Shown here one piece after another: positions 3,184 to 63,880 of a stretch of DNA of 64,000 nt (the stretch's first letter is position 1; each line of letters starts with the position of its first letter). The notes under the pieces are model-generated. The model saw only the letters and a list, made by a program, of their open reading frames with translations, ran no database searches and was not told the DNA's origin. This DNA is from an uncultured Veillonellaceae bacterium (GTDB taxonomy: Bacteria > Bacillota > Negativicutes > UBA1444): positions 48,207 through 112,206 of the forward strand of contig CAZRLN010000002.1 in the NCBI GenBank assembly GCA_964601085.1, in the 5' to 3' direction. The position numbers were made by a program, and so were the translations under genes.

Positions 3184-4800
3184 TTGAGGAAAGGTTACTT
3201 TGAAAAGCCGAGTATGTACTCGGCTTTCCCCTTACTATCGGATATGGAGAGGAGGCAAACTACCATTGTTGAAAAGTTAATCTTTGTATTGGTTGCCGCG
3301 GCAATCGGAACGGCTGCCGGTTATTGGATTCGAAAAAAACTGGCGGAAGCCAAGATCGCTTCGGCGGAAGAGGCCGCCCGGAAAATTCTCGACGATGCTC
3401 AGCACAGCGCGGATGCTCGAAAGAAAGAATCCCTGATTGAAGCCAAAGAGGAGATTCATCGTTTTAGGGCGGAAGCCGAGCGTGAACTCAAGGAACGCCG
3501 CTCCGAAGTTCAGCGGATGGAACGCCGCTTGCAGCAAAAAGAAGAGAACTTGGATCGAAAAATTGAGTCCATGGAGAAAAAGGAAGAGAATATCGGCAAA
3601 CGTGAATTGGAAGTAGACGGCAAACAGGCGGAGATCAACGAACTGTTTCAAAAGCAGGTCGACGAACTGGAACGTTTGGCCGGTTTGACACAAGAAGAAG
3701 CCAAAGCAGTTTTGCTTTCCAATGTTGAGCAAGAAACCCGTCATGAAATGGCAATTCTGATCAAAGATCTGGAGCACCAGGCGAAGGAAGAATCCGAGAA
3801 AAAAGCCCGTGAAATTATTTCGTTGGCGATTCAACGCTGTGCTGCTGATCATGCTGCAGAAACCACTGTTTCTGTAGTGAGTCTGCCCAACGACGAAATG
3901 AAAGGGCGAATTATTGGCCGGGAGGGCAGAAACATTCGGACCCTGGAAGCGCTGACCGGGATTGATCTGATTATTGACGATACCCCGGAAGCGATCCTTA
4001 TCTCCGGTTTTGATCCGGTTCGACGGGAAGTCGCCCGGATTGCCCTGGAAAAACTGATCAGTGATGGCCGCATTCATCCCGCACGGATTGAAGAAACTGT
4101 CGAAAAAGCGCAAAGGGAAGTGGAACAGCGGATCAAGGACGCCGGAGAACAGGCAACCTTTGAAACGGGTATCCATGGTTTGCACCCGGAATTGATCCGA
4201 TTGTTGGGCCGTTTGAAGTATCGTACCAGCTATGGCCAGAACGTATTGAAACATTCGATTGAAGTTTCGCATCTGGCCGGAGTGATGGCGGCGGAACTGG
4301 GCGTGGATGTTACATTGGCCAAACGGGCCGGATTGTTGCATGACATTGGCAAAGCGATCGATCATGAAGTGGAAGGCCCCCATGTGACAATTGGCGGGGA
4401 CCTGGCCAAGAAATATCGGGAATCAGCGGAAGTCATCAATGCGATAGTTGCGCATCATGGCGATGAGGAACCCAAAACAATCCAGGCGGTTCTCGTGGCC
4501 GCTGCAGATGCTGTTTCCGCCGCAAGACCTGGTGCACGGCGTGAAACCTTGGAAAGCTATATCAAGCGTTTGACCAAACTGGAAGAAATCGCCGATTCCT
4601 TTGATGGGGTCGACAAGTCGTATGCGATTCAAGCAGGACGTGAAGTCCGTATTATTGTCAAACCGGAAAAAATCGACGATCTGGCCTCGATTCGCTTAGC
4701 GAAGGACATCGTGAAACAAATCGAATCGGATATGGATTATCCGGGTCAAATCCGCGTAACAGTAATTCGGGAAACTCGTGCCGTTGATTACGCAAAATAA
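3184..4800 (+). CDS. rny: ribonuclease Y (N-terminal TM helix, KH and HD domains)
   Basis: Near-colinear with B. subtilis Rny (KH motif [12 protein letters not shown]; HD motif LLHDIGKA; C-terminus [13 protein letters not shown]-like). Track start is TTG 3184; an in-frame ATG at 3244 is the alternative. The only strong SD (GGAGAGGAGG about 3246-3255) lies just downstream of that ATG, so the start is ambiguous. Confidence 0.9.
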
Positions 4801-55523: not shown

Positions 55524-57566
55524 TCAACCGGCGAACAGAACGCCAAAAAAACTGTTGAACCGTTGTTGGAGAAGCGGCATAATTTCCGATGACAGTCCTG
55601 GGGTGTTCATTACCATGAGGCCGGCTTGCCGGGCTTCTTCCAGAACGTGAAGGTCATCGGCCAGGTTGGCCATTTTCATTTCCGGCAGGCCATGTTGCCG
55701 ATACCCGAGGAACTGTCCCGGACCGCGCAGCAACAAATCTTTCTCGGCAACAATGAACCCATCGCCGGTTTCCGCCAGCACTTTCAAGCGTTCTGGCGCG
55801 GCTGCGGTTTTATCATCATGCAAGAGGACGCAGTAAGATCGGTCGGCGCCCCGGCCAACCCGGCCGCGCAGCTGATGCAATTGCGCCAGCCCAAATCGCT
55901 CCGCATTTTCAATGATCATCATTGTCGCTTTCGGGACATTGATCCCGACCTCTATCACCGTAGTGGCAATCAGTACCGAAATGCGTCCCCCGGCGAAGTC
56001 CTGCATGATCGCCTCTTTGTCCGCCGCGCTCATTCTGCCATGCAAAAGCCCGCAACGGACCTGTTGCAACATCGAGGAAGTCAGTTCATTGAACACTTCC
56101 GTCGCCGACTGGGCGGATAACTTATCGGATTCCTCCACCAGCGGACAGACAACATATCCCTGCCTCCCTGCCGCGACTTCCGTCTCCAGAAATCGATATA
56201 CTTTTTCCCGTGCGGCCTGACCGGACCGAATCGCCGTAACAATCGGCTGACGTCCTGGCGGAAGCTGACGAATGACGGAAACATCCATATCCCCATAAAG
56301 AGTTAGCGCCATGGTTCGGGGAATCGGCGTAGCCGACATCACCAGGGTGTGGGGAACCGGACCTTTTTCCTGCAATGCAGCCCGTTGCCCCACGCCGAAG
56401 CGGTGCTGTTCATCGGTGACGACCAAGCCCAGATTATTAAAAATGACATCGGGCTGCAGCAAAGCGTGAGTGCCGATCAATAGCTGAATTTCTCCATTCT
56501 GTAAAGAATCGAGCAGCTTTTGACGGTTGCTTCCTTTGACCCGCCCGGTTAATAATGCAGCTTCCAGACCGAGCTGTTTATAAAGAGGAGCGCAAGTTCG
56601 ATAATGCTGTTCCGCCAAAATTTCGGTCGGCGCCATCAAGGCTCCCTGAAAACCATTTTCGATCGTTTTGGCGAGCGCCAGCAGAGCAACGGCGGTTTTG
56701 CCGGATCCGACATCCCCTTGCAACAGTCGAAGCATGGGACGTATTGATTCCATGTCTCGCGCAATGTCCAGATAAGCCGCCTGCTGATCGGCGGTAAGCT
56801 GGAATGGCAGAAGCGACTGCAACATTCTCACCATCTTGCCATCGGGAGAGTGGGCCTTGCTGCGCCGGTCTTCCACCCGCTGTCGACGCAGAAAAGCCAA
56901 CGCGCATTGAAGAAAAAACAATTCCTCGAAGACAATCCGGCGTTTGGCCTGCTGCATCAAGTTCCAATCGGTAGGAAAATGGATTTCATTCAACGCCTTG
57001 GTTCGGTCGATCAGTCGATGATCTTGCAAGATTTGTTCAGGCAACGTTTCGGCAATTTGCCGCTCAGTGTGCAGCGCTGCGGAAATCAGCTTTCGCAGGA
57101 CACGGGCGCCGAGGCCCTGTGTCAGAGGATATACCGGAACAATCCGCGCCGAGTTCAAAAGTTCGGCATCAGAAACCGGATCGACTTCCGGCGCTTCGAT
57201 CTGCAAATTATCTCGAAATCGATTGACTTTTCCGTATACCATGAGCTTGGCGCCGCTTTTCCAGGCAGTCGCCCGATAGGGCTGGTTGAACCAGACCAAC
57301 ACGGCGACTCCTGTTTCATCCTGAACAAAAACGCGGGCAAGAGATTTTCCCCGAACCCTTTGCACATCTCCCCGCTCCACCGTGGCGGTAAAAGTAGCGA
57401 AGTCACCATGGCGCAATTGATTGATTTGGATCAGGCGGCTCCGGTCTTCATAGCGTAGCGGAAAATGTTCCAACAAATCGTCGATGGTGTGAATGCCCAG
57501 CCGCTGCAGCCGGAAAGCCATGGCTTCGCCGACGCCCTTAAGGTTTTTTATCGATTCTTTACCCAT
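55524..57566 (-). CDS. recG: ATP-dependent DNA helicase RecG
   Basis: Start at M29 of the track ORF (SD GAGGAG 8 nt upstream); wedge domain, Walker A GDVGSGKT, DEQH box. Confidence 0.93.
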   Translation of the reverse strand: MGKESIKNLKGVGEAMAFRLQRLGIHTIDDLLEHFPLRYEDRSRLIQINQLRHGDFATFTATVERGDVQRVRGKSLARVFVQDETGVAVLVWFNQPYRATAWKSGAKLMVYGKVNRFRDNLQIEAPEVDPVSDAELLNSARIVPVYPLTQGLGARVLRKLISAALHTERQIAETLPEQILQDHRLIDRTKALNEIHFPTDWNLMQQAKRRIVFEELFFLQCALAFLRRQRVEDRRSKAHSPDGKMVRMLQSLLPFQLTADQQAAYLDIARDMESIRPMLRLLQGDVGSGKTAVALLALAKTIENGFQGALMAPTEILAEQHYRTCAPLYKQLGLEAALLTGRVKGSNRQKLLDSLQNGEIQLLIGTHALLQPDVIFNNLGLVVTDEQHRFGVGQRAALQEKGPVPHTLVMSATPIPRTMALTLYGDMDVSVIRQLPPGRQPIVTAIRSGQAAREKVYRFLETEVAAGRQGYVVCPLVEESDKLSAQSATEVFNELTSSMLQQVRCGLLHGRMSAADKEAIMQDFAGGRISVLIATTVIEVGINVPKATMMIIENAERFGLAQLHQLRGRVGRGADRSYCVLLHDDKTAAAPERLKVLAETGDGFIVAEKDLLLRGPGQFLGYRQHGLPEMKMANLADDLHVLEEARQAGLMVMNTPGLSSEIMPLLQQRFNSFFGVLFAG

Positions 57567-58485
57567 GATTACGCTCCTCGTCTGCCTGGTTGGATGGTAT
57601 TGTTCCTTGTAATGATTTCTGGGCATACCGCAGCCATTGACGCGCCGCAAAAGAAAGATGGCGATTCTTCTCCCAAATAACAGCCAAGTTCCAGCGTAAT
57701 GGAGAATCTTCCAGCATGAGCATCTGAACCTGATTTTTTGCGTTCATTTCCCATACTTTTTGCGGCAGAAAGCCGATTCCTAAATTTTCCGCAACCATAC
57801 CGACAATAAAATCCCATTGGGAAGTCTGACAGGCAATCTGTGGAGAAAAACCCAGTTCTCGACATTGATCGATGATTTGATCATGGAGCGTGAAATCTTC
57901 GCGAAACATGATGAACTTGTCCATCGACAAACTTTTCATGGACACGCTCGTTTCCCCGTGAAAGCGATGTCCGGGACCAACAATGACAACTACCGGTTCA
58001 CAAACAAACTCAAACACTTCGAAATGAGAATCCCGCAACGGCAACTGCACGATGCCCAAATCCAGTTCCCCCGCTAATAATCCCTGCTCTACCCGTTTGG
58101 AACCGAATTCGAGCCATTGGATCGAGATTTGGGGAAATTTCTTACTGAACTCGCCGGCTATCTTCGAGAAGTATCCGACGCCAGCCATCGGCGGCATACC
58201 GATCCGAATGTTTCCTGTTCGTAAATTCGCTACGTCATCCAGTTCTGCGCTCAGATTCTGAAATGCTTTCACAATATCTTGGGCCGGTTTTATTATCGCC
58301 TTGCCGGCATCGGTCAGTTCCACTTTTTTTGTCGCCCGGTTGAATAACGCGACGCCGAGTTCTTCTTCCAGATTGCGAACCATTTTACTTATGGTTGGTT
58401 GCGTGATAAACAGTTCTTCGGCCGCAGCCGAAAAACTGCGTTTTCTGGCTACTTCCGTAAAATAAAGCAAATGCCGGATTTCCAT
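57559..58485 (-). CDS. LysR-family transcriptional regulator
   Basis: 308 aa; HTH MEIRHLLYFTEVARKRSFSAAAEELFITQPTISK; overlaps the recG start by 8 nt. Confidence 0.88.
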   Translation of the reverse strand: MEIRHLLYFTEVARKRSFSAAAEELFITQPTISKMVRNLEEELGVALFNRATKKVELTDAGKAIIKPAQDIVKAFQNLSAELDDVANLRTGNIRIGMPPMAGVGYFSKIAGEFSKKFPQISIQWLEFGSKRVEQGLLAGELDLGIVQLPLRDSHFEVFEFVCEPVVVIVGPGHRFHGETSVSMKSLSMDKFIMFREDFTLHDQIIDQCRELGFSPQIACQTSQWDFIVGMVAENLGIGFLPQKVWEMNAKNQVQMLMLEDSPLRWNLAVIWEKNRHLSFAARQWLRYAQKSLQGTIPSNQADEERNHG

Positions 58486-58522
58486 CTCATCCTCCTAAAA
58501 TAGACATCGAGAATGATCGCCA

Positions 58523-58550
58523 TTGATACTATTCATTTTACATATATTAT
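58523..58550 (+). promoter_or_regulatory. candidate sigma-A promoter TTGATA-16-TATTAT for the small-ORF pair, divergent from lysR
   Basis: cattgatactattcattttacatatattatt read directly. Confidence 0.45.
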
Positions 58551-58609
58551 TGCTGGAAGTACACTAAAAGAAAAGAGTATTTAAATGAAGAACTCGAGGA
58601 GGTAGACCG

Positions 58610-58705
58610 ATGGACAAAAACACACTGATTGCTTATACCAATTTGGCGACGTTACTGGACAAAATCATGCGACGTTACCACAATATCAACACTTGCCAAT
58701 TTTAA
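58610..58705 (+). CDS. unannotated small ORF, 31 aa (MDKNTLIAYTNLATLLDKIMRRYHNINTCQF)
   Basis: Not in the ORF track (below the size cutoff). SD GAGGAGG with 7-nt spacing to the ATG; its stop TAA overlaps the SD of the next ORF. Confidence 0.4.
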   Translation: MDKNTLIAYTNLATLLDKIMRRYHNINTCQF

Positions 58706-58720
58706 AGGAGATGAAGCTTT

Positions 58721-58861
58721 ATGGAACGTTACTGTGAATATTGCGGCAAAGATATCCGGGACGAAGCCGTGTTCTGCCCTTTTTGCGGCAGCAATCCAGT
58801 CGCGGTAACCGGCAATTTCGAGCGGAAGGAAGATGCCGAACCCATAAAATCGGTCGCGTAA
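58721..58861 (+). CDS. unannotated small zinc-ribbon protein, 46 aa (MERYCEYCGKDIRDEAVFCPFCGSNPVAVTGNFERKEDAEPIKSVA)
   Basis: SD AAAGGAG 10 nt upstream; CxxC-N9-CxxC; followed 25 nt later by a strong terminator. Confidence 0.5.
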   Translation: MERYCEYCGKDIRDEAVFCPFCGSNPVAVTGNFERKEDAEPIKSVA

Positions 58862-58885
58862 TAAAAACATGCCGGATTTATTCTT

Positions 58886-58915
58886 AAGCAAGGCGATATG
58901 CCTTGCTTTTTCCTT
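58886..58915 (+). terminator. rho-independent terminator after the small-ORF pair
   Basis: AAGCAAGGC-gatat-GCCTTGCTT followed by TTTCCTTTC. Confidence 0.75.
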
Positions 58916-58991
58916 TCTGCCTATGTTAAAATTACTTCGTTGTTCAGCGTGAATACGTACTTAACCCTCAAGATTGAAGGAGGTGTAATTG

Positions 58992-59180
58992 ATGGCCAAT
59001 TTGTGTGAAGTCTGCGGAAAAGGTGAACGCAGCGGATTTAATGTCAGCCATTCCCACCTTAAAACCAAACGGACTTGGAAACCGAACATTCAACGCGTCC
59101 GCGCTTTGGTGAAAGGTGAAATCACTCGTCTGAATGTTTGCACCCGTTGCCTGCGCTCCGGGAAAGTCGTTCGTCCCTAG
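58992..59180 (+). CDS. rpmB: 50S ribosomal protein L28 (Zn-ribbon C+ form)
   Basis: 62 aa MANLCEVCGKG...CTRC; SD AAGGAGG 8 nt upstream. Confidence 0.92.
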   Translation: MANLCEVCGKGERSGFNVSHSHLKTKRTWKPNIQRVRALVKGEITRLNVCTRCLRSGKVVRP

Positions 59181-59213
59181 TTTTTCGAGTTTCCATTAAA
59201 TTCGAATTAAAAA

Positions 59214-59251
59214 AGATTGTGCTGAAAATTTGTTTCGGCACAATCTTTTTT
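59214..59251. terminator. bidirectional terminator between rpmB (+) and hslO (-)
   Basis: A-run, then AGATTGTGC-(15 nt)-GCACAATCT, then T6. Confidence 0.8.
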
Positions 59252-59283
59252 ATTGTCATTGTATTGCATCGGTACAATCGAAC

Positions 59284-63699: not shown

Positions 63700-63880
63700 A
63701 CCTGTAACAGGTCATATTTTGCCTTTTCCCATCCAGACTTTACTGTCGGCTCCGGAATTCATACCGGATCAACCTCTCGGCTCGCGGGCTTAACCGCCGG
63801 TCAGGAATTGAAGGTTTCCCTTCTCACCATGCCCCAAAGGCGCTATTCAGTTGTCCTGTTCGTATATAGGATAACACTGG
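63700..63880 (-). promoter_or_regulatory. FMN riboswitch (RFN element) aptamer in the ribD leader
   Basis: Minus strand contains GGGGCATGGTGAGAAGGGAAACC, GACCGGCGGTTAAGCCCGCGAGCC and CCGGAGCCGACAGTAAAGTCTGGATGGGAAAAGG. These match the conserved RFN helices P1/P2 and the invariant CCGACAGT.AAGTCTGGATGGGAGA core. Confidence 0.8.

Follow-up and report, generated by a model that had tools for sequence, protein, structure and literature searches.

We examined a 64,000-nucleotide (nt) stretch of DNA from an uncultured Veillonellaceae bacterium (contig CAZRLN010000002.1, positions 48,207 to 112,206; hereafter, the window), in which two tiny open reading frames (ORFs), ORF1 of 31 amino acids (aa) and ORF2 of 46 aa, lie between the divergent gene of a LysR-type regulator (lysR) and rpmB, the gene of ribosomal protein L28. 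Judging by their pattern of codon substitutions, both ORFs are genuine genes. The explanation that we favour for their role, and that we hold to be rather probable, is a bicistronic small-protein operon under the control of a CidR-family LysR-type regulator, the products of which would act in trans as soluble effectors of its metabolic response.

ORF1 occupies positions 58610..58705 of the + strand (ATG at 58610, TAA at 58703-58705; MDKNTLIAYTNLATLLDKIMRRYHNINTCQF) and ORF2 positions 58721..58861 of the same strand (ATG at 58721, TAA at 58859-58861; MERYCEYCGKDIRDEAVFCPFCGSNPVAVTGNFERKEDAEPIKSVA). Strong Shine-Dalgarno sequences had been claimed for both and can indeed be read from the sequence: GAGGAGG (58596-58602, +) stands 7 nt 5' of the first ATG and AAAGGAG (58704-58710, +) 10 nt 5' of the second, the latter overlapping the TAA of ORF1, as had also been stated. 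The terminator announced after the pair is likewise present (58886..58918, +); its hairpin, AAGCAAGGC-GATAT-GCCTTGCTT at 58886-58908, has a 9-bp stem (-13.5 kcal/mol) and a 5-nt loop and is followed by a T-rich tract, and in the alignment the stem is kept in all relatives, including a lineage without ORF2 described below. The sequence alone proves neither ORF, because ORFs so short abound by chance: the 4-kb stretch around the pair is overlapped by 71 ORFs of at least 20 aa. It is conservation that raises ORF1 and ORF2 above chance.

Conservation and Coding Status of the Two Small ORFs

Relatives of the lysR protein were retrieved from three metagenome-assembled genomes (MAGs): at 78% identity from the Negativicutes MAG UBA1444, and at 72% each from a MAG labelled "Veillonellaceae" and from a second Negativicutes MAG; further contigs were gathered through look-ups with ORF2 and ORF1 and a metagenome scan. 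In total, the arrangement was found in 13 distinct loci, that is, the window and 12 further ones from Negativicutes MAGs and unbinned metagenome contigs. Their shared gene order comprises a tautomerase gene, recG, and lysR pointing leftward, ORF1-ORF2 and rpmB pointing rightward, and hslO and ribH pointing leftward again, the lysR/ORF1-ORF2/rpmB/hslO order being seen in L001, L002, L004, L007, L008, L025, L026, L030, L031/32, and L033. The reading frames of the two peptides are kept in the 12 further syntenic loci, ORF2 being absent from the lineage already mentioned, so that the conservation and synteny on which the original prediction could be judged are in place.

In order to compare the sense frames with control frames, we used pooled Nei-Gojobori proportions of nonsynonymous (pN) and synonymous (pS) differences. 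In the ORF1 frame, pN is 0.19 vs. a pS of 0.83, whereas the three other frames tested have about equal values (pN 0.31-0.32, pS 0.25-0.30); among the nine aligned ORF1 sequences, variable sites at codon positions 1/2/3 number 18/13/30. ORF1 has 31 codons in every locus, with a variable stop codon (TAA, TGA, or TAG), and a GGAGG core lies 5' of it in all loci. Its C-terminal block, R22-Y-H-N-I-N-T-C-Q-Y31, shows only synonymous third-position changes in seven of the nine sequences, apart from a Y/F alternation at residue 31; the exceptions are L030, with H24Y, and L028, which ends in NMY. For ORF2, pN is 0.21 vs. a pS of 0.69, and 0.13 vs. 0.69 over the zinc-ribbon part; pN about equals pS in four of its five control frames, while the fifth (antisense +1; 0.23/0.52) shares its third positions with the sense frame. 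Because of this third-position bias, of sense frames in which pN is much lower than pS, and of reading frames that are kept, we conclude on comparative grounds that both ORFs are genuine genes.

The competing explanation would be that of chance ORFs on a non-coding RNA or on plain intergenic spacer. Short ORFs are frequent by chance, which speaks in its favour, but the sense frames have a pN much lower than their pS, no independent frame carries the same signal, and ORF length and Shine-Dalgarno sites are conserved over the 13 loci. Nor is there a match to an Rfam family, the scan of the region yielding no credible family at the E-value threshold and none at the gathering threshold. We regard this explanation as effectively refuted by the codon-substitution pattern.

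The same analysis settles the status of a longer ORF (79 aa) at 58652..58891 on the minus strand, which the original prediction had dismissed as a shadow of the pair. It reads the same triplets as ORF1 and ORF2 in antisense; its pN (0.31-0.32) about equals its pS (0.28-0.29), it has no Pfam match, and its length among relatives varies from 64 to 114 aa. The dismissal is therefore upheld: by its substitution pattern, this ORF is a shadow and no gene. As for the small pair, it had been described as unannotated, which holds for a gene track with a 60-aa cut-off but not for public gene-call collections; the exact ORF1 and ORF2 proteins are already present there, without a name or as "hypothetical protein", and some entries carry automatic misnomers driven by the zinc ribbon.

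An exhaustive phmmer search with ORF1 against 1.84 billion representatives returned only three 31-aa clusters, so that the family is, as far as these collections reach, confined to one uncultured Negativicutes clade, with no relatives outside it. Two long repetitive proteins that also scored were treated as spurious, and a homology search with a doubled ORF1 query gave no match. ORF2 homologues amount to only 12 cluster representatives, and ORF2 always adjoins ORF1 and lysR. Two of the ORF2 entries are peculiar and may be either artefacts of gene calling or sequencing or real variants: P0030, a 443-aa protein on a 1.85-Mb contig clustered with 47-aa homologues, and P0027, which has a Phe instead of the fourth zinc-ligand Cys.

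In the lineage that has diverged most (L027, L028, and L029, with a LysR about 65% identical), ORF1 is kept as MDKNTLLYLTFLDQLLEKIMQRYHNINTNMY and so is the terminator, and ORF2 is missing, about 100 nt of unrelated sequence standing in its place (1606..1890 in L028). ORF1 and ORF2 are thus not an obligate pair, and the persistence of ORF1 without ORF2 argues against both a mere leader peptide for ORF2 and an obligate two-protein complex. From this distribution, ORF1 appears as the core gene of the pair. In L028, the ORF1 protein carries C29N and Q30M.

The window also shows a mosaic patch when compared with L001 and L002: over 58500..58680, which covers the operator spacer, the 5' untranslated region, and ORF1 codons 1-20, identity drops to 54-72%. 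The flanks of this patch are mostly 85-100% identical in L001, and in L002 identity already falls within the 5' end of lysR (77% at 58380, 68% at 58440). Synonymous divergence from these two loci is 0.76-1.0 for ORF1 codons 1-20, 0.30 for lysR, and 0.10-0.25 for ORF2. These values are better explained by recombination that brought in a divergent allele, with a breakpoint within ORF1, than by local positive selection.

Predicted Properties of the Two Proteins

The AlphaFold2 model of ORF1 is a single helix spanning residues 3-29, with a mean predicted local distance difference test (pLDDT) score of 88. The conserved residues L6, Y9, L12, L16, I/L19, M/L20, Y23, and I26 all lie on one face of this helix, which has a hydrophobic moment of about 0.38 and a mean Eisenberg hydrophobicity between -0.01 and -0.21. 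ORF1 is thus predicted to be a soluble amphipathic helix of the type that packs against a partner, rather than a membrane peptide, and its conserved hydrophobic stripe suggests the binding of such a partner. Database searches with ORF1 gave no family: none past threshold in Pfam (the best being WH_Rok, E=0.051, 14.1 bits vs. a 27.6-bit cut-off), no match in NCBIfam, PHROG, and PADLOC, and nothing significant for its profile against Protein Data Bank (PDB) sequences (at best a BirA helix, E=0.23).

Two known types of small protein were considered for ORF1 and rejected. A type I toxin or membrane micro-protein would have a hydrophobic transmembrane segment, which is absent from the amphipathic ORF1 helix. 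SpoVM is a small sporulation peptide the gene of which adjoins rpmB in B. subtilis; the hhalign probability of a match with ORF1 was 0.1%.

ORF1 might also be a precursor from which a modified or signalling peptide is made, with the C-terminal ...TCQY as core; some peptides modified by radical S-adenosylmethionine (SAM) enzymes have comparable cores, with Cys and Tyr, at their C-terminus. Its short length, its conserved C-terminal Cys-x-Tyr, and its helical, "leader"-like N-terminus would suit such a precursor. However, the Cys is not invariant (Asn in L028), ORF1 has no signal peptide, and in none of the loci did the gene calls, over about 5 kb to each side, include a maturase, a radical-SAM enzyme, a protease, or an exporter; the genes called around the loci encode a tautomerase, RecG, LysR, L28, Hsp33, Rib proteins, CYTH/CHAD proteins, polyphosphate kinase, a His_Phos_1 phosphatase-family protein, and one 164-aa protein without a Pfam hit. 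We therefore regard a modified peptide as very improbable.

ORF2 had been read as a zinc ribbon by eye, and it passes the threshold of Pfam Zn_Ribbon_1 (PF13240) with 31.6 bits vs. a cut-off of 25 (E=1.3e-7); by this match, it is a predicted soluble zinc-binding protein and a member of that family. It is laid out as a CxxC-N10-CxxC zinc ribbon (residues 1-29), a variable disordered linker, and a conserved C-terminal K-S-V-A. In the alignment of 12 sequences, C5, C8, and C19 are invariant, and C22 is present in 11 (P0027 being the exception). The AlphaFold2 model shows two zinc knuckles, with pLDDT scores of 70-80 for residues 1-29, and falls below 50 for the disordered residues 30-39. Matches in the PDB and among PHROGs are to generic zinc ribbons only. 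ORF2 shares with generic Zn_Ribbon_1 proteins the score and the cysteine spacing, but is set apart in a narrow sub-family by RYCEYCGKDI...FCPxCGSNP and the K-x-[VA]-A end, both of which are conserved among the 12 homologues, with a variable linker between them.

A Conserved Putative Operator and Promoter Facing ORF1

Between lysR (57559..58485, -) and ORF1, a block at 58500..58565 (+) is invariant or nearly so over 9-11 Negativicutes loci and has the appearance of an operator and promoter. It includes ATAGAC (58500-05, +); an imperfect dyad, GAATG-N5-CATTG (58511-25, +), which would be a LysR-type box upstream of the -35 element; TATTCATTTTACATAT (58530-45, +), which contains the -35 hexamer TTTACA (58537-42); and GAAGTACACTA (58557-67, +), which covers the -10 hexamer TACACT (58560-65). 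The bases GAAT and, in the second arm, AT of the dyad are conserved in nearly all loci, and the dyad geometry corresponds to LysR-type boxes such as ATAC-N7-GTAT (PMC11495319).

A promoter had been predicted here in the form of TTGATA-16-TATTAT (58523..58550, +). This sequence is present, and matches the consensus at 10 of 12 positions, but its -10 hexamer is not conserved: relatives have GATCCG, TATCTG, or TATCCA where the window has TATTAT. In the same promoter scan, TTTACA(58537)-17-TACACT(58565) matches at 9 of 12 positions; its TACACT is invariant in seven aligned Negativicutes relatives, and TACACT or TATACT is also found in the cidA promoters of Brevibacillus, Tumebacillus, and P. contaminans, though not in the other Paenibacillus loci L010 and L019. 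Conservation thus makes TTTACA-17-TACACT more likely to be the functional promoter than TTGATA-16-TATTAT.

The resemblance to cidA promoters goes beyond these hexamers. In the alignment, the shared plan consists of ATAGA, GAAT-N7-ATT, TAT-CATTTTAC-TAT, about 12 nt, and TACACT. An nhmmer profile built exclusively from ten Bacilli cidR-cidA intergenic regions and run against both strands of the whole window gave a single significant match (E=0.0015), which covers 58500-58565 of the + strand; the runner-up has an E-value of 7. In the reciprocal direction, a profile of eleven Negativicutes regions was run against 168 kb of loci, and its matches besides the window were in Brevibacillus (L011, 1.3e-5; L017, 1.8e-5; L012, 0.0017) and Tumebacillus (L015, 0.0055), with weaker top matches in six further LysR loci; all of them adjoin the 5' side of the LysR gene and are oriented accordingly. 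From these reciprocal nhmmer matches, we conclude that the lysR-ORF1 intergenic region is homologous to the cidR-cidA intergenic regions of Brevibacillus, Tumebacillus, and Paenibacillus. The original idea that the pair stands, divergent from lysR, at the position of a LysR target is strengthened by this homology.

A CidR-like Regulator without CidAB Nearby

The 308-aa product of lysR has the Pfam domains HTH_1 and LysR_substrate, and its best NCBIfam family is CidR (NF047520) with 366.8 bits, the next being GltC with 186. As this score is under the 415-bit equivalog cut-off of CidR, we call the regulator, from its family score, CidR-like and not CidR proper. Its homologues at 42-50% identity in Brevibacillus, Tumebacillus, and Paenibacillus are divergent from a pair of genes for membrane proteins of 123 aa and about 226 aa, with the exception of P. 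koleovorans (L021); from their sequences, we take this pair to be CidA/CidB (LrgA/LrgB-family). A tblastn search with the Brevibacillus CidA and CidB-like proteins matched neither the window nor any of 10 related loci. Since no cidAB was found and the operator and promoter are of the cidA type, ORF1 and ORF2 would take the position of cidAB.

The likeness to S. aureus CidR-cidABC and to the cidR/ywbI-cidAB-like loci of Bacilli is thus one of layout, namely a LysR-type regulator for which CidR is the best family and a divergent target, and, for the Bacilli loci, also one of homologous operator/promoter blocks (ATAGA, GAAT-N7-ATT, TAT-CATTTTAC, TACACT). The differences are that the target in the window consists of a soluble 31-aa and a soluble 46-aa protein instead of the CidA/CidB membrane pair, that the regulator is under the CidR equivalog cut-off, and that lysR is in an operon with recG. 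In S. aureus, this response is set off by overflow metabolism (excess glucose, acetate, pyruvate). According to a review, CidR activates cidABC there under excess glucose or acetate, with pyruvate as its presumed co-inducer (PMC10332168); by analogy, the regulator of the window may sense the same signal. Another precedent is WatR of Methylomonas sp. DH-1, a LysR-type regulator that activates the small ORFs watS1-5 under acetate stress; WatS1-4 are predicted to be membrane peptides with a single pass, and their presumed role is the modulation of an RND (resistance-nodulation-division) efflux pump (PMC10355033). Both systems associate overlooked small ORFs (up to about 50 aa in Methylomonas) with a LysR-type regulator that answers to a weak acid or metabolite, the regulation being inferred in our case, but ORF1 and ORF2 are soluble and have no sequence relation to the WatS peptides.

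Three Planococcus loci (L022, L023, and L024) have LysR homologues with 39-42% identity that are divergent from a gene for a 439-aa transporter-like membrane protein, not from cidAB. Their best match to the operator profile, a weak one (E 0.3-0.6), is directly upstream of the LysR gene, at about 3916-3956, which hints that this type of operator may be older than any single target.

Proposed Mechanism and Its Weighing

In the mechanism that we propose, the divergently encoded regulator would bind an operator made up of ATAGAC and the dyad GAATG-N5-CATTG, next to which lies the block overlapping the -35 element, and would drive the sigma-A-type promoter TTTACA-17-TACACT, with a transcription start predicted near 58572. 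The transcript would be about 340 nt long and end at the intrinsic terminator (58886-58918). Ribosomes would translate ORF1 and then start on ORF2 13-15 nt further on, at the Shine-Dalgarno sequence that overlaps the ORF1 stop. The two proteins would finally act in trans, through protein binding, as the output of a CidR-type response, in the genomic and regulatory position of cidA/cidB. A more specific version, in which ORF1 (with ORF2 where present) is a new soluble effector that replaces the CidAB membrane proteins as output of the CidR circuit, is one that we put forward tentatively and consider less probable than not being so; under it, the proteins could modulate an enzyme of pyruvate/acetate metabolism or exert feedback on LysR itself.

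Several points weigh against the proposed operon and its control by LysR. The match of the Bacilli profile to the window is statistically modest in that direction (E=0.0015, 14 bits). Recognition sites of LysR-type regulators typically lie at about -65 from the transcription start, and the centre of the dyad is at about -54 from the predicted one. With a score below the CidR cut-off, the regulator may respond to an effector different from that of CidR. The search for cidAB covered 64 kb in the window and at most about 11 kb in each of the other loci, the lineage of L027, L028, and L029 does without ORF2, and the conserved operator could serve lysR autoregulation only.

This last point leads to an alternative in which both genes are real but independent of LysR, the operator serving the autoregulation of lysR-recG only and the divergent layout being left over from an ancestral cidR-cidAB locus. 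LysR-type regulators commonly autoregulate via the same intergenic site (PMC11495319), and the failure to find cidAB in the window and the 10 related loci, as well as the LysR score under the CidR cut-off, would suit such a history. On the other hand, the conserved TACACT and TTTACA face ORF1, just as they face cidA in Brevibacillus, Tumebacillus, and P. contaminans, and the block is conserved across relatives the LysR of which is only about 65% identical. We consider this alternative unlikely, without its probability being negligible, and retain LysR control of the operon as the preferred explanation.

One has to keep in mind that the physiological role of Cid/Lrg and CidR is still debated, between the control of cell death and the transport of overflow metabolites. 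The clade studied here keeps a CidR-type regulator with its operator and promoter, yet what lies downstream is two tiny soluble proteins instead of CidAB; should the replacement be true, the CidR sensing module, itself conserved, would be open to rewiring towards effectors of a wholly different class. Knowledge of what the 31-aa helix binds could reveal what the CidR signal ultimately controls. The pair is also a clean, evolution-backed example of functional genes of less than 50 aa overlooked by length-filtered annotation, and illustrates how codon-level comparison over metagenomic relatives can validate tiny genes and reveal that a longer antisense ORF is a shadow. For the moment, the impact is modest, as the family is narrow and belongs to one uncultured clade; at the genomic level, the case is robust.

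The Junction between ORF1 and ORF2

In all eight tabulated loci, the ORF1 stop and the ORF2 start are separated by 13-15 nt, with the Shine-Dalgarno sequence at or overlapping the stop; the frame relation between the two ORFs varies among loci. In the sequence of L033, the gap is 14 nt. Folding of the junction in 10 loci revealed no shared RNA fold and no structure that sequesters the ORF2 Shine-Dalgarno sequence; folding energies were equal to or weaker than those of shuffled sequences in nine of them, and about one standard deviation more stable in L008. Translational coupling by proximity of the ribosome, without the unmasking of a hairpin, is plausible, the conserved 13-15 nt gap being the one feature that points to it.

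The same junction could be read in another way, with ORF1 as a cis-acting leader or arrest peptide: stalling on RYHNINTCQY just before the stop would control the translation of ORF2, and ORF1 would have no function in trans. The last 10 codons are indeed the best conserved part of ORF1, and its stop lies in or next to the ORF2 Shine-Dalgarno sequence in the eight tabulated loci, as in MifM, TnaC, and the Erm leaders, which are likewise short upstream ORFs with a conserved C-terminus ending at the Shine-Dalgarno sequence of the next gene. ORF1 differs from these in being conserved over its full length, including the N-terminal MD(K/R)NTL and the hydrophobic stripe, in remaining intact in the three loci without ORF2, and in the lack of a regulatory RNA structure in the junction folds. 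We accordingly judge a leader peptide to be improbable, and keep to two proteins acting in trans.

The rpmB Side and Neighbouring Features

The original prediction placed the pair immediately upstream of rpmB (58992..59180, +) and called attention to this position. The adjacency is real but carries little weight, because the conserved terminator of the small operon and a separate promoter stand in between. This putative rpmB promoter (58903..58932, +) consists of a -35 hexamer TTGCTT (58903-08), which sits within the descending arm of the small-operon terminator, an 18-nt spacer, and an extended -10 element TGtTAAAAT (58924-32; TATGTTAAAAT); TATG(T/C)TAAAAT is conserved in all relatives in the alignment, and rpmB probably has, therefore, a promoter of its own.

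These elements bear on a further alternative, which ties the pair, and chiefly ORF2, to its zinc-protein neighbours, the four-cysteine L28 and the redox chaperone Hsp33, as a ribosome-associated or zinc/redox-handling protein. The location directly 5' of rpmB and close to hslO is shared by every locus, ORF2 has the four cysteines of a zinc ribbon, and the L28 of the window carries CxxC...CxxC. Against this, besides the intervening terminator and conserved rpmB promoter, ORF2 can be lost, its matches among solved structures are to generic zinc ribbons only, and all loci come from one narrow clade, so that synteny says little. The adjacency to L28 and Hsp33 is thus weak evidence of a functional link, because it is conserved within one clade only, and we give such a link little probability compared with that of an operon answering to the CidR-like regulator.

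On the other side of the regulator gene, the stop of lysR and the start of recG overlap by 8 nt (57559..57566), in relatives too; from this overlap, lysR and recG form one operon, to which the tautomerase gene probably belongs as well. The listed recG ORF (55524..57650, 708 aa, with a TTG start) is probably too long: recG is called at 679-681 aa in relatives, which matches an ATG at 57566.

Further downstream, a long AT-rich hairpin of 20 bp, bordered by runs of A and T (59208..59252), stands between the convergent rpmB and hslO; it is likely to be a bidirectional terminator, and it also yields weak spurious Rfam hits. Finally, an FMN (flavin mononucleotide) riboswitch (Rfam RF00050, 88.4 bits) is found at 63717..63845 on the minus strand, upstream of the ribD-ribE-ribBA-ribH operon, which ends next to hslO.

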